Origin: a virus | Lineage: Duplodnaviria > Caudoviricetes | Virus record (IMG/VR): IMGVR_UViG_3300031867_000022 | Location: 1 to 64,000 of that record | DNA: 64,000 bases | Direction: 5' to 3' (one strand) | Shown: piece by piece, positions 1,176 through 61,172 of the stretch | Numbering within the stretch: position 1 is the stretch's first letter | Layout of the letters: each line of letters starts with the position of its first letter | Made by a program: the position numbers and the translations under genes | The notes under the pieces: generated by a model | The model's input: the letters and a program-made list of their open reading frames with translations, nothing else | Database searches by the model: none | Told to the model about the DNA's origin: nothing

Positions 1176-4100
1176 TCAACTAAACGATTGTCTGAACTTA
1201 GTTATCATGTGAGATATAGTAAAGTACTCAGACGGATTATTATTCTTTATACCAACCTTCATCCATTTGCCACGTATTCTATTTCCATACGGCATGTTTT
1301 TATATCTTGGTACATTGTATATTATATTACCCTCTCTGTCTGTAAACGGTTCCATAGATACATCAAATGGTTTATTAATTAGATCTGTTTCAAACGAAAG
1401 TACTGTATCTGAAAGTATGTGCTTATAAGTCTTAAATCTATCCCTCTTTATAGGAACAAGCTACTAAGAATCGTATACCTTTGTTACAGATGCAGAAGGA
1501 TTTACTATAAACTCTAACATAAGAGGAGATAAATACTTCATATCTCCATACTATAAATAGTTATGTTTTGTTATATGTAAAATTTTATCTTCTATCTATA
1601 AACCGTATATATGATTCTTTATATATGCTATATCGTCATACTTTCTTGTATATATAGAAGTGGCTATATTATATTTCAAATTAAATACAATTTGATCGTC
1701 TCCAAAGCATTTACATAACAATTCATTGTTCTATAAATCATAATCGACTTTAGGTACGTCTGTTGTAATTCTATCGTTGATTATATTCTAAACACCAACC
1801 TATTCTCCATAGTTTGCAACTTGATTGCCATTTGTACCTACAACAGCTTTATTGTTTATGTCAACCCAATATATACCATTCTCAACACTAATTGCACAGA
1901 AATCATATAACCTCATTCCGTATTTAGTACTTAAATAATCGTATCTAGAGAGAATGCCGGCTTGACCAAGCATGATCGTATTGTTGTTCTAATCATTAAC
2001 AAGAGAACGTTCGTTTACACTAAACTTACCAAAAGCATGATCCTACCAGTAATACAACATATTTTTATCAGTAAGCATGTTTGTTATCTGTCCGTACTTG
2101 CTATCTACATCAATAAACGCGGCAGGTTTAAAAATTAAGAAATTGTCTATAAATTCTCCATTAGATTTTAATTCAGAATAATAAGCACGTTGTTTAAAGT
2201 TATTTGTTTCGTTTTCGTCAGTACTTATTAGAGTAAATATGTCATTGGAAGAATCATTGTCAGAGTATATCATGTTGTACTGATGTACAGGGCGTTCTTG
2301 TGTGGTAACACCGTCAATAGAACCTGGTTCATATAATAGATTTTCGCTCTACGTATTTATAAGATTCATACCGTAGTCGAAGAATGTATTTACTTTAGAT
2401 TCAAGAGGTACATAATTTGTAATCTAAGTAGACTAAAGTGTATCGACAGATTCAAAATTATACGTCTTGTACATTGTAGTAAACTCGTGAGGAGTAATAT
2501 AAATATCGCCATCAAATACAGTAAGATAATCTTTATCATCTTCTGTAACAAGTCTACCGTTTTCAACCTTTAAGTTGAAATAATTTCCAAAGCCAAAATA
2601 CTACTCATATTCTTCAGATTTTATATCTGCAGTTTTTGGTGTGTGTTGAATATTACAAATAGATGTATATAACTTGTTTTCGTACATTGGAAAAACAGAT
2701 GGTTCATCTTTAGTCGTAAGCAGGAAACAAGATGGCCCAGGACCAATAGGTCCTTTTCTTAACTTCATGTCATAATAATCATGCTCTAGCCACCACACAT
2801 AACTTTCAGACGTTCCTAAGAATTCCTAAACTTCTGCACTTCCATTATCGCCAAGATTTATGTTTGGAGCAGACGCAATTCCAGGTCTAAAATCATACTT
2901 TCCAAAAGATACCCAATTGTTATAAACAAAAGAATCTATGTTTGTAGTATAACTTCTGTATTTTTTTATACCGTCGAATACATTTTGATCAGAATCTCTA
3001 TTTATATTAGTAAACCCATCGTTCCATTGAGCCATTTTAACATCTTTTATGGCGTTTACTTTATGTTTTCCAAAATTAGAATGATCTGAAGTACTAGTAG
3101 TAAAGAAATTGTATATGTAATGGTTTGCCTGTTTTTGTTCAATTGTATCTTTATTTAATAGAGCTCTATCTATTACAACTCCTTCTTGCGAAGATACTTC
3201 TGCTTCATCAAAAATGGTTTTGTTGTACGATTCGTCTTTACTATTATTTGAATATTTTGCTAGAGTAGAAGATACGTATAATTTTTCTGATATATCTGCA
3301 TCAGATACATTCAATCTAGATAATACATCATCTCTTCTAAAATCAATCTCTTGTGAAAATATTTGATACAATTTACGCTCTTTTGTTCTTGCGTGCAATG
3401 CGTATTGAGCAGCTACTGGTATTACATACGTTAACCCACTACTAAAAGCATCACCTCTGTCTGGATGCGCATATGCATCATAATAATACGAAGGTTTGAT
3501 TACCATGTCGTTTACCTGCATAAATCCAGTTGGATAGAATGGAGATTTTTTTATAGTTTCTTCAGTAGTAGTATTCCATTGATCTCCGGTAACATTTAAA
3601 TCAAGCAATCCTTGTTGTATAGGTCTTGCCAACGCAACTTGTAACAATGTTTTCTAATAAACATCCGAAGAAGATCTTCTTACAATCTAACATCCTATTA
3701 TGTCTTCTGCGTTTGATATTTGAGGAATCTTGATGTCTACTCCAATAGGATGAGCTAATAATTTATCTGTACAAGTGAACGGTCTAGATTCGTCATAATC
3801 TGGAGTTTCTATTTCTCCTAGATTTGCTACATCAGTACGTCTTCCGTATTTATCATAAAATACAATAGCATATTTGTACGTTTCACCTCTACGTAAAGAT
3901 CTAAGTAGACTGGAAGTAATTATATTGTTGTACGATGCTGTTACATCCTACGGGTTTATTCCTCGCTGTTTAAGATAGTCTGTAACTGTGGTAGTAACGC
4001 CAGAAGTAGCTTTACTATGTTCTATAGTATTATATCGCTGCGAGTATTTAGTATTGCCTGGATTTGGTATATCTCCAGATATCTTTTCAGATAGAACAAC

Positions 4101-5231
4101 AGTAGTTTTTGCTATACTTATTCTATCCGTATCTTCATAATATGAATCTGGGATCTTTGAATCTCTTATAATAGTATCGTCTTTAACGTTAGCACAAAAC
4201 ATGTATTCTTGGTTTTGCTCTATAGTTTTTGGTATAAGTATTATACCAGACATCGCAGAGAACTCTTCTATAGAAAGCTCTTGTATAGGATCTATACCTA
4301 TATCGTTTAATACAAATTTTTTACCAATTTGAGGTTTCTTAATTTCACCATCGTATATTAATGCAACATGAGCATCTTCTCCAGGTTTTATATATTGAAG
4401 TCTATAAACCTGTAAACGCTCATAATGACCAATATATTTTTTAACATCTACAGAAAGTATAAAACCAATTGATGTTTCTGTATCTTCTGCGTTACCTATT
4501 TCTTTAGATCTAGAAGAATCTATTACTTGTATTTTATTAGTGAGCGGAGCAAGTTGTGTAGTATTACCATATTTATTATAATATCTATAAGTATACTATA
4601 CCTGCGAGGTAATGAGTCTACCGGAAGTAATACCTTCTATATATATTCTTTCTGTAGGAACTACTCTATTGCTAATAAAGTCGTCTACTGTAGTATTACT
4701 TGTTATATTCTTAATACCTTCGTCGTCTATTCTTATACTCATTACAGGGTGTGTACCTGTTGCGATATATAACTTTATTACATTATCTAGTTCTTTATAT
4801 AATACAGTAGATACCTAATCCGGTACATTGGTTGCGTCCCATATCACAGAAGACCATAATAAACGAAGTTCTTTTAGTTCGTTTTCGCTCTCATCTATTA
4901 TAAATCGATATATGTTTATATCTCCACTGCCTTCAGTATTACAAACAATAACTCCAATATTGTCTACTGTTTTTACTGATAATATCTTCTTCCCTTCAAA
5001 CGAAGGTTCGTTTAATAAAATATCTACAACATCCGCTCCTTGGACTACTGGAGTTACAATACCCTCGTGCAAGGAAGAATAATCCCCAGATCCGCCTAGA
5101 AGCTAGTTTTTTGTTATTCTGATATTCTAACCAAATACATATTGCTGATTTTCTATTTGGTCGTATGAAGTATCAGAATTCATTCCTTTTCCAAAAGAAT
5201 TTATCTGTGAATTATTCTCATTAATAACCAT
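1176..5231 (-). CDS. Tail muzzle / tail stabilisation protein (~1351 aa; TAG=Gln)
   Basis: Track ORFs 4815-5072, 3948-4253, 2826-3647, 2601-2798 and 2043-2273 share one frame and are separated by TAG; starts MVINENNSQINSFGKGMNSD, ends TKFRQSFS-TGA; size and position fit the crAss muzzle. Confidence 0.85.
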
Positions 5232-6105
5232 AGTAGTAGTCGTTATAAGTCAACTGTTCTTTATTTATGTGTTTAAAGAATGTATCATCACCATCCCAAT
5301 CTGGGATAAGCTTATTCCAATCATTCTTTATGTTTTGCATATCATCTGCAGTAGGCATCATAGCTTCTGCATAAGCTTGATTACGATAGAAGTTCCACTG
5401 TGACTGTGTATAGAAGTAAGTCTGTTGTGCATACTTCTGTGAATACTTAGAACTACCTGTAGTAAGTTTACCTGACATAAACTTAGGGAATGTAAGCTTC
5501 ATTACTACATACCAATATACAGCTTCTTGATAAGAAGTAAGATCTGGTATTAGAGGATAACCTCTTTCATCTACTGCAATTGCTTTATATGCAAGCTTAA
5601 TAAATCCATGCTTCTGATTTGTTACAATCCAACCAGGCTTGATGAAGTATTCAGGCTTGTTTACATTGCCGTCTATAAACCTCTTTGTATACTTCATGAA
5701 GTTGTTTGTATACAACTGTGATTGTGAAGTAGGAAGTTTATACATCATGGGTTGATGTGTAGGCGGTGGAATTAGCATAGGATGAGGCTTTCTCTTATCT
5801 TTAAAGACTCTAGTCATTGTGCTCATTGGGATCCAAGGACCTTCTGGACTCTCTGAATATGCCACAGCATCCAATACCTACAGATCAGAAGGAATGGGAA
5901 CTTGATAATCCTATATCTTCAATACAGGGGGATCTTCTGCTGATCCTAATTCCCTGCTGATATACTACATAGGGGCACCAATCTTATCAATGGCTTCAAA
6001 TATCCACTCTCGTATATCTGATGTACGCTATCTAACTTCTGTGGAATCTAAATCAGCCATGATCTTTGCTATGACTGATTCACACTTTGTATAATTGTAT
6101 ATCAT
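5221..6105 (-). CDS. Tail ring / tubular protein (P22 gp4-like; 294 aa; TAG=Gln)
   Basis: MIYNYTKCESVIAKIMADLD...; extends ORF 5221-5874 across in-frame TAGs; YKAIAVDERGYPLIPD motif; just upstream of the muzzle. Confidence 0.75.
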
Positions 6106-9594: not shown

Positions 9595-10644
9595 TCAACC
9601 GACGAAAGCGTCGAGAATATCCTTCACATCGCCAAGCTGACCAGTGAGACCATAAATCTCAACAGTCTGCTTTGTCTTGCGCTGGATGTCATCAGCTGCA
9701 CGATACATATTCTCAAACTCAAGAGTAAGAGCATCGTAGTGTGCATTAATGTTAGCCTCCATAGCAGGCTTGATGATAGGCCATGTGCCCTCACCACGGT
9801 TCAGGATACCCAGGTAACCCATAGCCTGAGATTCGCGGTCACGAACGAGCTTAGCTGAAGCTTCGTACTGCTTGCCAGGAACCTTATCAATGGTTACGCC
9901 GTCGGGGAAATGCTTGTTCTTAGACTCCCATCCGTCTGCAGCAGGATCGGTGTAGTAAACATTAGCATTGAAACGAACCTTATTGGCCCAATTGATTGTG
10001 TCATTAGCATCGTCATCGTCGTAAGGCAGAGCTGTCAGGATAACCTTATTTGCCTGAGAAATATCAGCAGATACACGAGCACGCTTCCACTCGAAGTTGA
10101 TCATGTTACCAATATTTTGAGCAATGCTAGCCTTAGTATCGCCTTCCTCCGTAACATACTCATAAGACTCAGTCCACTTGCGGAAGCGAGTAGGCAGATC
10201 CTTAAAAGTAAGACGAACGATGATGCGCTTGCCACCCTCAGAGAACTTGTTCTCAAGCTGAGCATTCAGACCAGAGAAGTCGATAGTAATCGTATCCTCT
10301 GTGTCAGCGGTATACTGAAGTGCGTTGAAACTCTTAATATCAGCAGCCTTAATCTCATTAGACCACTTAATGATAGGACGATACTCAACGCTACCATCCT
10401 GCTTACGAAGAACAGTGTTCTTCTTCGTTACGATACCAACCTTGATCTTGTTGATTTCGCCAGCGTTAGCAGCAGTAACATTGTACAGTTTGTCGGCAGC
10501 GACATCAGGATCGCAGTTCATAAAAATAAACTTGCCAGCATCTTCAGAAATGGCATTCATTGAAGTAGCCTTCCTAGGCTCAGTATTCAGAACAGCACCT
10601 GTAGCAAGATTGCTAACAAGCACAGTATTTACGTATGTAATCAT
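9595..10644 (-). CDS. Auxiliary capsid protein (by synteny; 349 aa, TAG-free)
   Basis: Intact ORF with MCP-like codon usage and its own terminator; lies after the ring genes. Confidence 0.65.
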   Translation of the reverse strand: MITYVNTVLVSNLATGAVLNTEPRKATSMNAISEDAGKFIFMNCDPDVAADKLYNVTAANAGEINKIKVGIVTKKNTVLRKQDGSVEYRPIIKWSNEIKAADIKSFNALQYTADTEDTITIDFSGLNAQLENKFSEGGKRIIVRLTFKDLPTRFRKWTESYEYVTEEGDTKASIAQNIGNMINFEWKRARVSADISQANKVILTALPYDDDDANDTINWANKVRFNANVYYTDPAADGWESKNKHFPDGVTIDKVPGKQYEASAKLVRDRESQAMGYLGILNRGEGTWPIIKPAMEANINAHYDALTLEFENMYRAADDIQRKTKQTVEIYGLTGQLGDVKDILDAFVG

Positions 10645-10720
10645 ATTATTAAATTAATTTTTTCTACTCCCCCTATATTTCTATGTCTAGACCTAACTAG
10701 CTGGGGTTTCCACGTTAAAA

Positions 10721-11407
10721 TTATTCTTGTGTTAATACTTCGTTGGTTATAGTTTTATATCTAGCATCAGATTGATTTTCTATATACATCTGAGCTGCTA
10801 TCTTAATTATTTCCAACCAAGTGTAATCTTCAAAGTCGACGTAATCGTGATTGATATCGTCGTCTTTAACTTCTTCCGGCACTTTAAGGTAACCTAAAGT
10901 GTAGGAGTATATATTATAGTTAGTATCCGTCAACAGACGAAATCCTTCCTTAGTTCTAACTCTAAGAGGTCTTGCTCTATGGTATTTGTAATGAAAGTCA
11001 GTAAGAGAGTTATTAACTCTGTACATAAAACTATCTGCTGTACATTCAAATACACAAGTATCCATCATATGCTTATTATTGTTGTCTGATATAACAACAT
11101 CTTCGTTTAGTACAAACATCATATCCGTAGGGTATTTGTACTCGTAAGAATCATACGACTTGCTAACTTTATAATTGATAGGTCGTAAAGATACTTCCTT
11201 GTGTAAGTTAATTAAATCTCTTGCTCGCTTTTCAGTTTCTTCATAACCAGTTCCTCTTGGAGCAGCACCGTTAAATCTTTCTTTTGTAAACTTAACGACT
11301 GCTTGATTTATCCAGAATAAAGAATCGTCTGTAAGCGGTTTTTCTAATGAGTTGTTGAGCTTATTTATTTCTAGTTCAAATGCCCCGATTAACTGATAGT
11401 TCTTCAT
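10721..11407 (-). CDS. Tail ring protein (228 aa)
   Basis: FELEINK..., GYEETEKRARDLINL, GYLKVP...EIIKIAAQMYIEN; paralogous to neighbouring rings. Confidence 0.8.
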   Translation of the reverse strand: MKNYQLIGAFELEINKLNNSLEKPLTDDSLFWINQAVVKFTKERFNGAAPRGTGYEETEKRARDLINLHKEVSLRPINYKVSKSYDSYEYKYPTDMMFVLNEDVVISDNNNKHMMDTCVFECTADSFMYRVNNSLTDFHYKYHRARPLRVRTKEGFRLLTDTNYNIYSYTLGYLKVPEEVKDDDINHDYVDFEDYTWLEIIKIAAQMYIENQSDARYKTITNEVLTQE

Positions 11408-12120
11408 TCTTGTTCATTCTTTTGGTTATTGCGCTGCTGTTGCGCTTGTTCTTGTTGTCTACGTCTATTAGCTTCTGCTCCAGATACGTATTGTACATAT
11501 AGGTCTACAGCACCCGATACAAGCTGCTCAAACATCTCCATAGGTAGTTCACATCTAGTAGATGTAAGAGGGTTCATATAGTTTGGTAACTTATAATATT
11601 CAAGCTGTATATTTACAGGCTCTGTATAACGATCATAGAGCGCTCCTAAGCCGTTTTCATCGGCTAGCCATACAATTGGACTCCTGAGGATTCTTAAGCT
11701 GTCCTAGGGCCTAGAAATAAGCTTATTTACATCTTTTACAGATATAAGCTCGTTTGGTATAGTACCAGCACCAGTTTCTCCGTTTAGCCTATACGATGAG
11801 CTAACTTTACTATAGCTTTTAATATACAAACCAAAATTTTGAGGTAGTTCGCATCTACATATAGGTCTAGTAGAAGAAGGAGTAAGCTAAGCTGTTTCCA
11901 TCATACTATTCAACAGAGTCTCTATGTATGTTTCAGCATTAGACGTAGGAATCTAATCTACGGTTCTATATAAATCGTGGATAAGCTTGTCTTGATATTG
12001 ATTCAAGAAAGAGTATATAGTCTCAGAATCAAGTTTCTCAAGTATTTCTTTTTGCGGGATCATCGTTTGAACCCTACGCTCAAACTCAATCCCTAGCTGT
12101 CTCGTTTCTTGTATCGTCAT
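11404..12120 (-). CDS. Tail ring protein (238 aa; TAG=Gln; missing from the ORF track)
   Basis: MTIQETRQLGIEFERRVQ...EYYKLPNYM...CELPMEMFEQLVSGAVDLY; ATGA overlaps at both ends. Confidence 0.8.
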
Positions 12121-30456: not shown

Positions 30457-30532
30457 CGCGTGGCAGAGGAATCGAACCTCTGATTCTAGGGCCGCTAAGT
30501 CCGCTAGCGCTTTACCACTAAGTTAACCACGC
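30457..30532 (-). tRNA. tRNA-like element with an aberrant anticodon arm
   Basis: Acceptor GCGTGGT/GCCACGC, D loop AGTGGTA, T arm AGAGG-TTCGATT-CCTCT; anticodon arm CTAG-14 nt-CTAG. Confidence 0.65.
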
Positions 30533-39824: not shown

Positions 39825-39899
39825 TGGTCGCCCCACCATCGAGTCGAACCCGGACCTGGAGGGTTAGAGCCTCCCGTGCTACCGCTACACCATGGAGCA
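39825..39899 (-). tRNA. Amber suppressor tRNA (anticodon CTA), tRNA-Gln-like, CCA encoded
   Basis: TGCTCCA/TGGGGCG acceptor, GGTGTAGCGGTAGCAC D arm, GGAGG-CTCTAAC-CCTCC anticodon arm; irregular T stem. Confidence 0.88.
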
Positions 39900-48635: not shown

Positions 48636-48696
48636 AATACTGTCGGGATGTAGATGTCCCCTGATGAGTCGTTGCAAATTACGACGAAACAGTATT
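48636..48696 (+). ncRNA. Type III hammerhead ribozyme
   Basis: AATACTGT-C | GGGA..TCCC stem I, CTGATGA core, GTCGT/ACGAC stem II, GAA, ACAGTATT stem III; GUC cleavage triplet ends at 48644. Confidence 0.9.
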
Positions 48697-53630: not shown

Positions 53631-53807
53631 ATGAAGTACGAAAATTCTATGCATCGATTCTTTCAAGTTAGTAGCGGAGTTTCCCTTATTATAGCAGGTA
53701 TAAGTATGCTAAAAGGCAATATGCAAGGTGCAACATTTGGTGTGCTTTTGGCCATACACTTAAACATGCTATCTTGGAATTATGAAGATTACGATGAGGA
53801 AGAATAA
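53631..53807 (+). CDS. Small two-TM membrane protein (58 aa)
   Basis: MKYENSMHRFFQVSSGVSLIIAGISML...FGVLLAIHLNML. Confidence 0.5.
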   Translation: MKYENSMHRFFQVSSGVSLIIAGISMLKGNMQGATFGVLLAIHLNMLSWNYEDYDEEE

Positions 53808-53829
53808 GAAATCTTAGCGTGTCCCAGGA

Positions 53830-54023
53830 TAAGTCGTTCGGACGGCGGTTCGATTCCGCCCAGGTCCACCTATATTAATAAATATGGGCTTGACTGGTTT
53901 AGACGGCGACAGAAAGTAAGACATCAAGCGCTTTGATATAAAAATTAAACGGCAACATAAACGTTGTTGACTACACGGGTCTCCAGGAGGCAGCGTGAAG
54001 TCGGTGAACCCTACCTAAGTGGG
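53830..54023 (+). ncRNA. ssrA: Circularly permuted (two-piece) tmRNA; outer boundaries approximate
   Basis: 3' acceptor half GGACGGCGGTTCGATTCCGCCCAGGTCCACC (53840-53870) precedes the 5' half GGGCTTGACTGGTTTAGAC (53886); G3.U70 pair; tag ORF GNINVVDYTGLQEAA* at 53951-53998. Confidence 0.88.
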
Positions 54024-54025
54024 GA

Positions 54026-54081
54026 GAGTGAGTAGCGTTAATTCGCCCAGGTACAGGTGGGTTCGAATCCCACACTCACTC
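54026..54081 (+). ncRNA. tRNA-like minihelix without an anticodon arm
   Basis: GAGTGAGT/ACTCACTC stem plus GTGGG-TTCGAAT-CCCAC T arm. Confidence 0.7.
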
Positions 54082-54171
54082 CTACGTCGTGAGACGCATT
54101 AGACTGTCTTAAAGGATAGTCTCTTTCGTGAATGGTAGGTGCAGGTGAAGTATAGTAGCCTGCACCGTAAT

Positions 54172-58350: not shown

Positions 58351-58354
58351 TTAC

Positions 58355-60470
58355 TCCGGTGCGGGGGATAGACCAGGTCTGTCCCCCAGCCAGTTTGGCA
58401 GCACGTCAGCACGGTATAGATGGGTCTCATTAGCCCAGGTGGTGCGAAATATAATTTACTGGATCCGAGAATATGTTAGCCCTCTCAAAGGGTGAGAAAC
58501 TCAAAAGGTAGGATGGAAGATCGCAAGTGTGAAAAGCTTGTGGATATTAGGGTAAGCGTTGTATCAACCCTATTCTGGTCCCTGAGAACCGTCTGGTGAG
58601 GGTAGTCAAGAGAAGACGCATAAGTCGCAAAAAGCGCAAAACGAACCGTATCGAAAGATTTAGATTTCGAGTGATACATAGATCTGAAATCACGTTACAC
58701 GAGTTGAAACATTATAGTAAGCCAAAAACTATAATGATGTATCAATTTACTTTAAGCTGTAGTCTAGTGTTCCACGCAATCCAGGGCGTGTATGAAGGGA
58801 CGAACAATTACATGGAATAATATAAGCAATATCATAAGGGTAATACTTATGAGGCGTACCGTAACTACGTCGCTTTTTCGAACCCTTGCTGTTCGATTCA
58901 GCACAGCTCCGTTGAAGGGGTAAGCCAGGGATGAGGTATAGCTGATTGTGTTAGGAAATGTGACCGCCAGGCCTTAGTCGTTCATGCGGTATATAAAAGT
59001 AGAATGACATACTAGTCCGATGCAGGGATTAAATGCGAAGTAGGGCCTAGAGGCTTGAAGGCTACGCGGATGAAGTGCGCGGTGAAACACTATTTCAAAA
59101 AGGGAAAGCTCGGTAAGCGGAGTATGTAAAAGAACCTAGCGTTAAGATGTACCGGAGGAAATGCCGGAGTCGAAGGATGACAACCTGACAGTCAAAACCA
59201 ATTGTTTTAAAGTAGGTCGATTCAAAGCCTATACATTCCAGTATAGAGGAAGATCGCTTTCTTGTGCAGATAAAAGATAATATGAGATGTTACTGTTGTA
59301 CTATATCAGCGAGAGTAGTAAACTCGTGTGCGGTATGACTTAACTATGGTCACTCATATGAAAATATATTGAAACGAAACAATTAGAGAGTATTAACATG
59401 TTTAACAAAATTGATGTTCCCAGCTGGTAGAAGAAATAAAGACAACTTTGTATGTATGCGCTATCACGTCTGGAGTTCGAGTGCCAACCGTTCCTGAGAA
59501 GCAAGTAGCAAGATGGGAAACTAAGCGAAGCATAGACCGCAAATCTATGTGGGTGGATACCATGAAGCAATATACATGACAAATGAAGAAATTCAGATGC
59601 AAGGCAGCCTATCGTGAAACGAAGTATCACCTCCTTGTCTGGGAGGGGTAAAGCGACCAGGATGAACCTTATGTTTTATACATAAGTAGTAAAAATGGAA
59701 ACCGAAGAAGCGAATCTTTAGGTGGGTGATAAATCTAGATGTATGAGGTGGAATTCCTCCAGTATTCGTGCACTATAAACAATGAGGAAGTAAATCCAAG
59801 AGTAAAAACAACCGTACGTCCATGATGGGTTATGGAGCCCTAGACAGTTCGACAACAAAAGCGTTCCTCTTCACGCAAATACCAATTAGTTATAAAGAAC
59901 GAAGCCGGGTATTGATTGTTCTGACCGGAAAAAAGCATAGAACAGTGGCAGCTGTGCCTAATCAGTATCGCAAGACTGTACAACAGCAGAGTAGTTCAAT
60001 CAGCTTATAGGGAAAATACGCTGAAGAATTACGCAACTCTCATTTACGACCACAAACTGGGTTTAGTAAAACGTTCTACGAACATTAGTTGCGAAAGCAA
60101 AATTTTGCCAACGAACAAATGAAAACGCTCAGTTCATGAAAATTGAATATTAACATAGTTCCAAGTAATTTTATGTCTAATCACATAGTATCCAAGTTTG
60201 TACTTTTACTGAAGATAAAAGAATCCTCTAATGACGGGCATGGATGATTCTACCGTTGAATCCCCGACAGATGAAACAGTGTTCGTGCTGTGTAATCTGT
60301 CTAGCTAGAGAAAACTTTATTAACAGCAAAAACATTGCTCTCATGAGCACGCATAAAGATACAGAATAAGAAATTACCGAACACACGTTCATAGAGCCTT
60401 TGAGCCAGAACGCCACATTTCGAAACTCAAAGGTTACCCTCCCGCCAGAAGTGGAGGACATATTAATTCT
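58355..60470 (+). ncRNA. Putative very large structured non-coding RNA or RNA cluster
   Basis: About 2.1 kb with no credible ORF; dense hairpins, GNRA and T-loop-like motifs; strand inferred from context. Confidence 0.5.
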
Positions 60471-60515
60471 TATCGTTAGTTAATCAATAACGATATCAAA
60501 AAGGATAAGAAAACA

Positions 60516-61172
60516 ATGAAAACAATTGATGTAAACATCATGTCACCTGTTGTGACTAACAACGTCCAGCTGATCTCTAAGATTGGCTCGAATCTAGGTA
60601 CTCAGTTTTGTAAGGTAGAATCTCGCTTCGCTTGGCAAGGTGGCCAGGAAGGCTTTGAGCGTGACAAAAAGGCCATCGAGAATGGTGAGAAGAAGGGATT
60701 CATCCTCAATCGTAGTCCAAAACGGTTACTTGCTAAGAATTTCCTTATTGCAGGCACCGTGTTGATGAAGGACCCGATGAACGACGACGAAGTAGGAATT
60801 GCAATCAACCCCCACGACGATGGCTCGTGCGACTTGTTCCTCCCGATTACAGAGAATACTCTCAATACGATGGGCAAGACCACCGCAGAGGCTGTTGCAG
60901 AGGCTATCAAGGGTGAGCGTGACCACTTCTTCCTCGACGCCAAGACACTCGTAAAGATCCTGAACGACGCCATGCGCCGCGAGATTTCATATCTGGAGGA
61001 ACACATTCAGACCTGTCAGAAGATGCTCGTAACCCTCAAGGGTGACATCTCGAACAACGAGAACAAGGCAAAGATGATTGAGGATAGCTGGATCAACTCA
61101 GCGTTGAAGACCACGGTCGACATGCCTGGTGGTTCCGGTACAATAGTAACCGTCAACAAGACTGAGGACTAA
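60516..61172 (+). CDS. Hypothetical protein (218 aa)
   Basis: Intact ORF; biased codon usage. Confidence 0.8.
   Translation: MKTIDVNIMSPVVTNNVQLISKIGSNLGTQFCKVESRFAWQGGQEGFERDKKAIENGEKKGFILNRSPKRLLAKNFLIAGTVLMKDPMNDDEVGIAINPHDDGSCDLFLPITENTLNTMGKTTAEAVAEAIKGERDHFFLDAKTLVKILNDAMRREISYLEEHIQTCQKMLVTLKGDISNNENKAKMIEDSWINSALKTTVDMPGGSGTIVTVNKTED

Follow-up and report, generated by a model that had tools for sequence, protein, structure and literature searches.

Outside the ribosome, non-coding RNAs that are both large and structured are rare, and few examples are known from bacteria and phages: GOLLD, ROOL, OLE and raiA. All four are prime targets for new RNA biochemistry and for work on RNA-only assemblies. 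GOLLD and ROOL occur in bacteria, phages and prophages, their size is under about 1 kb, and both have reportedly been studied by cryo-EM.

Here we describe a candidate of this kind in a window of 64,000 nucleotides, the whole stretch of phage DNA that was analysed. Like GOLLD and ROOL, the element is a phage-borne, large, many-helix non-coding RNA recognised by covariation, and in both cases the stems covary around conserved loops and junctions. GOLLD and ROOL are found in regions with tRNA-type genes, and a tRNA and a tmRNA are located 4–7 kb upstream of the element (ARAGORN, Rfam). The element is limited to one crAss-like phage family, unlike GOLLD and ROOL, and at 2.1–2.4 kb it is much longer than either; it is several times the size of GOLLD, ROOL, OLE and raiA.

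The crAss-like Cellulophaga phage phi14:2 contains two separate lncRNA regions, which are expressed early and more strongly than most genes, and which persist (Drobysheva et al., bioRxiv 10.1101/2020.03.07.982082, section 4). The CDS-free stretch of phi14:2 (2905–4601, about 1.7 kb) is located upstream of replication genes. Both phages belong to the Crassvirales, and both have long CDS-free stretches that share their strand with the early-side genes around them; replication genes are presumably also close to the stretch in our window. Phi14:2 is a member of the Steigviridae, whereas the candidate RNA belongs to the Suoliviridae. No homology between the element and the g004–g006 region of phi14:2 was found with nhmmer, conserved-block motifs or the covariance model R1 described below, and the flanking proteins are unrelated to phi14:2 by tblastn. 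The phi14:2 pair is the nearest precedent, a non-homologous one, and the abundant early lncRNAs of crAss-like phages gain a family-wide counterpart that is defined in sequence and structure.

A non-coding locus in four Suoliviridae subfamilies

The locus extends from the stop codon of a 151-aa gene to the ATG of a 218-aa gene at 60516. Each stop codon is present in 4–21 copies in every one of the six frames, and the 3-base Fourier signal is 0.35, compared with 6.6–24 in the neighbouring genes. The gap stays closed when TAG is read as Q, TGA as W or TAA as Q. Single and double reassignments leave a longest run of at most 200 codons on the plus strand and open no frame; when TGA is the sole stop, the minus strand has a single run of 461 codons, which has no codon periodicity. 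None of the ORFs is conserved in position across 37 homologues, in which the median longest ORF is 100 aa. The stretch is truly non-coding, as had been proposed from its lack of ORFs. Several GenBank records have small ORFs in the homologous gaps; across an RNA locus such ORFs would be spurious, a case of routine mis-annotation.

Neither ARAGORN nor Rfam identifies a tRNA, a tmRNA or a cloverleaf inside the gap. The Bacteroidota −7 promoter motif TAnnTTTG is not conserved in the element, and sigma-70-like promoter sites and terminator-like sites are found at chance level only.

Full-length homologues number 73 (37 after removal of redundancy), with lengths of 2076–2410 nt. The homologous RNAs are 54–69% identical to the window in nucleotide sequence, compared with 25–31% amino-acid identity for the adjacent 461-aa protein, and blastn matches concentrate within the gap and thin out in the flanking genes. 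Judged by these comparisons, the gap is the best-conserved sequence of its neighbourhood, and purifying selection on the element is stronger than on the neighbouring proteins. Its blocks are collinear, with spacing and total length kept across the 37 non-redundant elements. Both the window and most of these elements contain the anchors CAAAAGGUAGGAUG, GACCGCCAGGC, AGUGCCAACCG, UUCGUGCAC and CGAUAUCAAAAAGGA in this order, the domain II anchors being absent from two. The 3' half is more plastic, as one sub-lineage keeps the 5' kilobase and has no domain II anchors. Loci that match the first 570 nt only were considered as modular variants and proved to be merely a more diverged sub-lineage.

The gap is preceded by a sigma factor, a small ORF, an ORF of about 460–510 aa and one of about 130–150 aa, and it is followed directly by two ORFs of about 170–220 aa. 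This synteny is found in the window and in 11 annotated records, which come from Oafivirinae, Loutivirinae, Boorivirinae, Uncouvirinae and Dulem virus 42. We defined the family by synteny together with a covariance model of the 5' core, R1 (136 positions, 25 pairs). R1 scores 113.6 bits on the window, which is a training sequence and contains no second copy, and 56.5, 48.5, 29.0 and 27.5 bits on independent loci. At each of these loci the match ranks first and lies on the plus strand, 100–260 nt into the gap, and nhmmer also detects family-wide homology at the same syntenic site. The element is single-copy and syntenic in the four subfamilies named above of the Suoliviridae, a family found here in human, pig and primate gut samples.

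The products of the two upstream genes (461 and 151 aa) and of the two downstream genes (218 and 196 aa) match no Pfam or PHROG family. AlphaFold2 models for the upstream side (pLDDT 79, all-alpha) and the downstream side (pLDDT 77) have no significant fold match. Searches of Pfam, PHROGs, a protein atlas, the PDB with Foldseek and VIA-align wide gave no hint of function for the flanking proteins, and the matches obtained are generic helical or coiled-coil ones with Z of about 6–7.

All 4227 families of Rfam 15 were compared with the gap using cmscan. No family matches at its gathering score, and at E<=10 there are three chance-level matches to unrelated families, consistent with the suggestion that the RNA might be new. 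The covariance models of GOLLD and ROOL have no match in the gap at either threshold. Group I and group II intron models do not match even at E<=10; the flanking ORFs are complete and their orthologues syntenic. The locus belongs to no catalogued RNA family, and we found no published description of it.

Covariation and strand of the RNA

Covariation was measured over the full length in 35–37 non-redundant homologues, using an anchor-segmented L-INS-i alignment that was not fitted to any structure. The consensus comprises 265 pairs, and 89.9% of their cells are paired, compared with a shuffle maximum of 77.3% and with 33–42% for slid partners. Both sides have changed in 175 pairs (shuffle maximum 128), and there are 1290 double-changed cells (shuffle maximum 441). 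Changed cells still pair in 66.6% of cases over the full length and in 84.5% within the well-aligned block A2; the lower figure is probably caused by misaligned variable hairpins. The 34 pairs of A2 are 94.0% paired, against 70.8% in shuffles, a level reached by 0 of 500. Both sides have changed in 27 of these pairs, the covariation score is 0.673 against 0.257, slid partners are 31–45% paired, and 381 of 451 changed cells still pair. In block A4 the corresponding values are 93.8% for 25 pairs and 81.8% in shuffles (0 of 500), with both sides changed in 18 pairs. Covariation among homologues, which had been put forward as a check on the candidate, exceeds both the shuffle and the slide controls.

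Mutual information, which uses no energy model, places 59 pairs that are at least 85% canonical among the top 150. The pair 59576/59740 is the sole long-range one among the 150 strongest APC-corrected pairs that is also in the consensus. Consensus pairs include 844 G-U and 238 A-C combinations, and this excess of G-U indicates that the RNA is on the plus strand. The consensus folding energy is −293 kcal/mol for the plus strand and −255 for the minus strand. The single-sequence folding energy of 58455–59410 is not better than that of dinucleotide shuffles (z −1.19 for the plus strand, −0.42 for the minus strand). Stems here are meaningful only through comparison with homologues; the hairpin density described initially is not above chance by single-sequence energy.

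A plus-strand RNA is under strong selection for a complex fold, with about 55–60 helices over 2.1 kb, and we regard selection on structure at the RNA level as close to certain. Many of the hairpins have invariant loops on covarying stems. The original prediction, one ornate RNA of large size and possibly of a new kind or else several clustered together, is supported by the covariation, the excess of G-U pairs, the lack of an Rfam match and the synteny in four subfamilies.

Pair support for domain II was taken from the L-INS-i alignment rather than from the MAFFT alignment A1, because MAFFT is out of register in the variable interior. Four helices proposed by RNAalifold (58511–14/58882–85, 58459–62/58466–69, 59494–96/59760–62 and 59415–19/60503–07) were dropped in favour of better supported local helices.

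Helices, domains and borders

The features of the locus are listed in Table 1.

Table 1. Features of the candidate RNA locus and its flanking genes, in window coordinates.
Feature	Position	Strand	Basis or remark
Upstream syntenic genes, 461 aa and 151 aa	56429..58350	+	same order in four subfamilies
Candidate large structured ncRNA locus (whole CDS-free stretch)	58351..60515	+	ORF, periodicity and covariation evidence
5' border: 11-bp hairpin with one U-G pair, then small hairpin GCCA/UGGC	58363..58399	+	
5' core	58456..58573	+	alignment A4, model R1
Seven covarying helices, conserved loops including GGUAUAUAAAA	58755..59036	+	alignment A2
T-loop-like hairpin, 5-bp stem UGCUG/CAGCA, 7-nt loop UUCGAUU	58887..58903	+	
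Distal strand UAACAUGUU of putative 9-bp long-range helix	59394..59402	+	partner 58470-58478
Domain II, about 295 nt	59480..59774	+	closing and nested helices
Conserved block GAC-N-GUYCGAUAA-N-GAAACG	59843..59864	+	near-invariant in 33 distinct sequences
Hairpin UUGC-GAAA-GCAA, conserved flanks UUAGU...AAAUUU	60085..60105	+	
3' hairpin cluster	60173..60353	+	87-99% paired, 2-5 covarying pairs each
3' border module: outer helix, inner hairpin, invariant GAUAUCAAAAAGGA	60469..60509	+	
Downstream syntenic genes, 218 aa and 196 aa	60516..61768	+	same synteny

The 5' border lies directly 3' of the upstream stop codon. Its two hairpins (58363–58387 and 58389–58399) are not followed by a U-tract. The longer one corresponds to the stem GGGGGAUAGAC/GUCUGUCCCCC noticed initially, and most of the homologues displayed have a long hairpin at this site with an entirely different sequence, so it is the structure that is conserved. 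In the 5' core, a helix (58460–66/58511–17) surrounds the hairpin GCCCU-CUCAA-AGGGU together with the unpaired, near-invariant stretches GAGAAUAUGUUAG and CAAAAGGUA, and two covarying hairpins come next. Among the stems first picked out by eye, UAGGG/CCCUA and UCAUAAG/CUUAUGA gain covariation support, and UCGAAA/UUUCGA is weakly supported (91% paired, one covarying pair).

The repeated T-loop-like motifs of the first reading fared unevenly. GCUG-UUCGAUU-CAGC is a real one; 25 of 35 sequences have UUCGAUU in its loop and 83% have UUCRA, its stem covaries, and it stands isolated as the only T-loop-like hairpin in the gap. GAGG-UGGAAUU-CCUC, at approximately 59745–59762 in domain II, is a covarying hairpin and by sequence no T-loop. 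GUUCGAC proved to be part of the conserved block GUYCGAUAA..GAAACG, and GTTCGAG and GTTCAAT show no conservation among the homologues.

Domain II is closed by the helix AGUGCC/G-GCACU (59480–85 with 59768 and 59770–74), which is 100% paired and in which G-C is replaced by A-U in three sequences and A-U by U-A in one. Within it are a nested helix at 59571–77/59739–45 (94% paired, five covarying pairs), a hairpin at 59530–36/59544–50 and two conserved junction strands near 59597–59610 and 59722–59736. The nested helices of the element span 165–290 nt, and at least one multi-helix domain is real.

Further 3', the stem and loop of the hairpin at 60085–60105 are variable and its pairing and flanks are retained; UUGC-GAAA-GCAA had been proposed as a stem, and it covaries. 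The hairpins of the 3' cluster are at 60173–86, 60236–65, 60246–62, 60266–302 and 60336–53, and 21 of 35 sequences share the conserved loop UACCGUU. The proposed stem CCUCCU/GGGAGG is a lineage-specific version of a hairpin whose stem is variable around a CUGUCU loop. At the 3' border the outer helix CUUAUC/GAUAAG (60469–74/60504–09) exists in at least eight sequence versions, all of which pair, and mutual information ranks 60469/60509 and 60470/60508 among its top pairs. The inner hairpin GUUA-AUCAA-UAAC (60479–91) has a covarying stem and an invariant AUCAA loop.

A putative helix between 58470–58478 (AAUAUGUUA) and the distal strand in Table 1 would enclose some 930 nt as a domain. Conservation is high in its two strands, which are 91% paired, and the single-sequence minimum-energy fold also contains this helix. 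Its changes are one-sided only: neither the 35 sequences nor the divergent Dulem and Loutivirinae members contain a compensatory change. There is therefore nothing to join the 5' kilobase and domain II to each other or to the 3' part as a single molecule.

Possible identity of the RNA

As a whole, the locus is best explained, with somewhat better than even confidence, as a stable folded RNA that is transcribed by read-through and acts in trans. No host-type promoter or terminator is conserved within the element itself, and read-through within the plus-strand gene arm would be the most likely source of the transcript. The RNA would fold domain by domain, and a stable, highly folded form would persist, possibly after processing at the structured borders. 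Its fold may then allow it to act in trans; the invariant loops and junction strands would be the places at which it makes contact, either with itself during assembly or with proteins of the phage or host. Such a model resembles the presumed behaviour of GOLLD and ROOL and would fit the abundant, persistent early lncRNAs of phi14:2. A trans-acting role in a scaffold, assembly or RNP, suggested by analogy, is possible at rather less than even odds. We consider the chances evenly balanced that one functional unit of at least 1.4 kb is present rather than several RNAs. It is doubtful that all 2.1 kb make up a single RNA molecule of defined three-dimensional architecture, working as an RNA machine, or as an assembly of RNA only or of RNA and protein, that is needed for infection. 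If it were, it would to our knowledge be the largest structured non-ribosomal RNA from any bacterial virus, and might serve as a scaffold, nanocage, ribozyme or decoy for host nucleic-acid-sensing defences.

Alternatively, a single precursor could be cut into a tight string of independent smaller RNAs, such as one for the 5' core, one for the hairpin cluster, one for domain II and one for the 3' hairpins. Proven long-range pairing reaches about 290 nt at most, the 930-nt closure has no compensatory support, the 3' half is semi-independent in the sub-lineage that has the 5' kilobase and no domain II anchors, and phi14:2 has two separate lncRNA regions (Drobysheva et al., bioRxiv 10.1101/2020.03.07.982082). 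However, collinearity, spacing and length are conserved in 37 elements, and the stretch contains neither a conserved internal promoter or terminator motif nor a known processing element such as a tRNA or ribozyme. We consider such a string unlikely, though it is the strongest of the alternatives.

The position of the 3' border module might point to a giant structured 5' leader, which would regulate the translation or stability of the 218-aa and 196-aa genes in cis. The module covaries strongly and encloses the invariant CAAAAAGGA, the distance from its end to the ATG is 6 nt in the window and 3–8 nt across all homologues, and there is no terminator between the RNA and the gene that follows. 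Against this, the module alone would suffice for translational control, the most conserved parts (5' core and domain II) are 0.7–2 kb from the start codon, and conservation of the RNA far exceeds that of the proteins under its supposed control (24–86% identical). No leader from bacteria or phages is known to us that requires 2 kb and some 55 conserved helices, and a leader of this kind is improbable.

A folded RNA acting in trans also accounts for the data better than a DNA-level element, such as a replication origin, packaging site or protein-binding array with incidental hairpins. A long non-coding phage stretch, presumably near replication genes and of unremarkable thermodynamic stability, might be expected of such a site. 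G-U is nevertheless tolerated 3.5 times more than A-C, so that selection on pairing is strand-specific and RNA-like; the stretch reads as unique sequence free of repeats (judged by reading), and GC skew has no turning point at the gap. We regard a DNA-level element as very improbable. Decayed, recoded or intron-interrupted protein genes, to which a suppressor tRNA with a CUA anticodon, minus-strand ORFs that appear fragmented under table 11 and the small GenBank ORFs might point, are effectively refuted, as recoding opens no credible frame, codon periodicity, position-conserved ORFs and intron matches are absent, the flanking genes are complete, and decayed genes would not be the best-conserved sequence of the locus.

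Conservation and covariation of the element

The element at 58351-60515 (+) is real: a large structured RNA locus of the + strand, strongly selected and undescribed. In a blastn search of 50,697 phage records it matches seven genomes of the Oafivirinae (Suoliviridae), and the matches are concentrated inside an intergenic gap; the gene order is common to 7/7 genomes, and the gap, 2.0-2.2 kb long, is CDS-free in each. A DNA pattern search of IMG/VR with three conserved blocks gave more than 100 loci, most of them on contigs near 100 kb in length. These include 73 full-length elements, 37 of them non-redundant (2076-2410 nt, median pairwise identity 0.57, anchors collinear). The nucleotide identity of the element is 54-69%, with blocks above 85%, and in the same phages the adjacent 461-aa protein is 25-31% identical.

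Hairpin density in the single sequence, on which the original prediction drew, does not exceed chance: 58455-59410 folds only 1.2 sd more stably than dinucleotide shuffles on the + strand, and the margin on the - strand is 0.4 sd. The case beyond chance comes instead from the comparison of homologues. RNAalifold was applied to a full-length alignment of 35 sequences (anchor-segmented L-INS-i, fitted to no structure), giving 265 consensus pairs in 59 helices, 28 of which are at least 85% canonical with at least two covarying pairs each.

Pairing in the full-length alignment and in two subregion alignments, compared with shuffles and slid partners
Alignment	Pairs	Cells paired	Shuffles	Slid partners	Both-side changes
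Full length	265	89.9%	maximum 77.3%	33-42%	175 (shuffle maximum 128)
A2, 58755-59036	34	94.0%	70.8 ± 0.8%, 0/500	31-45%	27 (0/500)
A4, 58455-58576	25	93.8%	81.8%, 0/500	35-51%	18 (0/500)

Over the full length, double-sided changes occur in 1290 cells; shuffles reach at most 441. The covariation score of A2 is 0.673 versus 0.257, and 381 of its 451 changed cells (84.5%) still pair. The full-length share, 66.6% versus 39.3% in shuffles, is below that of A2; this is attributed to misaligned variable hairpins and remains a caveat. A mutual-information scan that uses no energy model is in line with the covariation result: of the 150 strongest column pairs, 59 reach 85% canonical pairing or more, and 45 lie inside predicted helices. 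A cmscan search found no matching family in Rfam 15, consistent with an undescribed RNA; with covariation that beats shuffles, this supports the suggestion of a large, possibly new RNA or RNA cluster.

Architecture from 5' to 3'

Features of the element and other RNA features of the window
Feature	Position	Strand	Description
tRNA	30457-30532	-	Rfam 42.1 bits; absent from ARAGORN calls
CUA-anticodon tRNA	39825-39899	-	Would read TAG; ARAGORN label tRNA-Pyl; Rfam tRNA 31.7 bits
Type III hammerhead ribozyme match	48637-48695	+	49.8 bits, just above the Rfam gathering score of 48.5
Circularly permuted tmRNA	53776-54089	+	Rfam tmRNA_permuted 71.1 bits; ARAGORN tag peptide VVDYTGLQEAA
5' border	Starts 13 nt past upstream stop codon	+	Long hairpin; kept, with sequence wholly different between lineages
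5' core	58456-58573	+	Helix UUGAUCC/GGAUGAA enclosing covarying hairpin and near-invariant unpaired stretches
Domain II	59480-59774	+	Closing helix AGUGCC/G-GCACU, 100% paired
Conserved block GUYCGAUAA..GAAACG	3' of domain II	+	Followed by more covarying hairpins as far as 60353
3' border module	Ends 3-8 nt before next gene's AUG	+	Outer helix in at least 8 sequence versions, all pairing

The helix of the 5' core has the compensatory variants UUGGUGG/CCACGAA, UUGGUUC/GAACGAA and UUGGUCC/GGACGGA. The kilobase that follows is rich in hairpins whose loops are conserved over covarying stems (CAAAA 35/35, CAUU 33/35, GGGA 30/35, CUCAA 26/35, UUCGAUU 25/35 and GGUAUAUAAAA 20/35). UUCGAUU had been singled out beforehand as T-loop-like, a description that holds among the homologues, where its stem covaries. 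Lineage-specific hairpins of 60-70 nt are inserted between conserved helices in the homologous loci L005, L006, L015 and L118 (A2 columns 312-372), and these resemble the expansion segments of large RNAs.

In the closing helix of domain II, three sequences have A-U in place of G-C and one has U-A in place of A-U. Inside the domain are a nested helix (59571-77/59739-45), in which five pairs covary, and two junction strands that are conserved. In L005, an IMG/VR homologue, the junction strands GAUGCAAGGCAGC and GUGGGUGAUAAAUC (about 5930-6030) have exchanged sides of the helix, an arrangement seen in no other sequence. This is the behaviour expected of a discrete internal-loop motif, which here seems to have been turned over. 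Within the outer helix of the 3' border module lie the invariant GAUAUCAAAAAGGA and a hairpin whose AUCAA loop does not vary. A sub-lineage (L024, L090, L051, L052, L056, L077, L084, L092 and L105) keeps the 5' kilobase at about 70% identity and lacks the domain II anchors AGUGCCAACCG and UUCGUGCAC; the 3' half of the element thus shows greater evolutionary plasticity.

One RNA, several, or another kind of element

The most likely reading, which we hold with some confidence, is a multi-domain RNA: the element would be transcribed by read-through from the + strand arm of the genome, and the RNA would then work in trans by means of its fold. The main rival, distinctly less probable, is a series of separate RNAs. 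The 5' kilobase would be closed by a putative 9-bp helix (58470-78/59394-402), which is conserved and recurs in the single-sequence fold; compensatory change was not found in it, divergent members included. The element contains at least one true multi-helix domain, and all 2.1 kb as one molecule is putative and unproven, as no long-range helix yet ties the whole element together.

Sigma-70-like promoter sites and terminator-like sites show no excess over chance frequency, and the Bacteroidota -7 motif is conserved neither at the borders of the element nor inside it. Because these signals are null and a border module adjoins the start codon, we favour transcription by read-through within the + strand arm. 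That the element is a giant leader acting in cis on the downstream genes seems unlikely to us. For the syntenic flanking proteins, Pfam, PHROG, atlas and fold comparisons gave nothing more specific than generic helices.

G-U pairs number 844 versus 238 A-C, and the consensus folding energy is -293 kcal/mol on the + strand versus -255 kcal/mol on the - strand. Selection therefore acts on the + strand RNA, and a DNA element has very little to recommend it.

Hidden coding is the least credible of all. In the gap, 2165 bases without a credible ORF separate the stop of a 151-aa gene (58350) from the ATG of a 218-aa gene (60516). No frame is opened by reading TAG, TGA or TAA as sense, which matters because the phage carries a CUA-anticodon suppressor tRNA; each stop codon occurs in 4-21 copies in every one of the six frames, and the 3-base Fourier signal is 0.35 versus 6.6-24 in neighbouring genes. 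The stretch is therefore confirmed as ORF-free, as first proposed. Its + strand is purine-rich, with a GC skew near +0.2.

No position-conserved ORF was found among the homologues. GenBank places 'hypothetical protein' ORFs inside homologous loci (L009 3764-4270 (-), L011 3326-3808 (-), cr10_1 (L155) 10095-10280 (+) and Dulem virus 42 (L153) 9967-12082, the last with a dozen tiny ORFs on both strands), and the cr10_1 ORF, of 61 aa, overlaps the match of R1, a covariance model of the 5' core. These are probably spurious, because none holds its position across homologues.

Distribution, known RNAs and genome setting

Further Suoliviridae subfamilies were reached through the sigma factor. The gene order recurs in Loutivirinae (cr56_1), Boorivirinae (cr10_1) and Uncouvirinae (cr118_1), around a gap measuring 1.9-2.4 kb; in Dulem virus 42 tiny annotated ORFs occupy the syntenic gap. 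By sequence profile, Dulem virus 42 has a full-length homologue, and in cr56_1 the 5' core is recognised (E = 3e-11). R1, run without filters on both strands of 14.5 kb per locus, matches Dulem virus 42 (56.5 bits, E 2e-9), cr56_1 (48.5 bits, E 9e-8), cr10_1 (29.0 bits, E 7e-4) and cr118_1 (27.5 bits, E 1.5e-3). The match tops each Suoliviridae locus and lies on the + strand, 100-260 nt inside the gap; the E-values are rough, and the fourfold positional agreement is persuasive. By R1 the element is single-copy in the window.

Among the genomes of 185,579 prokaryote species a specific 28-nt block occurs in only five contigs, three phage-sized (about 100 kb) and two shorter (39.7 kb and 2.1 kb), which marks the element as phage-specific. 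The contigs (L157-L161) are binned with Segatella copri (L157, L161) and Bacteroidaceae or unclassified MAGs, which hints at the host or may be a binning artefact.

A full-text literature search found no published description of the element, and non-coding regions go without mention in Yutin et al. 2021. In the crAss-like phage phi14:2 two long intergenic regions are transcribed early, above most genes, and persist (Drobysheva et al., bioRxiv 10.1101/2020.03.07.982082). The phi14:2 lncRNA region (L128 2905-4601) is about 1.7 kb long, CDS-free, on the early-gene strand and upstream of replication genes; GenBank removed eight small ORF annotations from this highly transcribed stretch in 2020. 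We know of no covariation analysis of its structure. Sequence, structure model (R1 has no match) and flanking proteins reveal no homology to the element, and the region is its nearest precedent, an analogue rather than a relative. In kind, GOLLD and ROOL come closest: ornate, phage-borne RNAs, likewise large and without a known function, but unrelated to the element and much smaller.

The window covers part of the genome of a crAss-like phage. In its minus-strand arm (1 to about 41.9 kb) ORFs appear fragmented under table 11; TAG recoding of late genes would fit these ORFs beside the CUA-anticodon tRNA. The + strand arm, from about 42.2 kb, carries a tRNA-Glu, the permuted tmRNA, an ECF-type sigma factor and many small genes. 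In cr10_1 the syntenic position likewise has an annotated tmRNA (L155 4506-4891). The hammerhead match in the + strand arm could indicate RNA processing of early transcripts.
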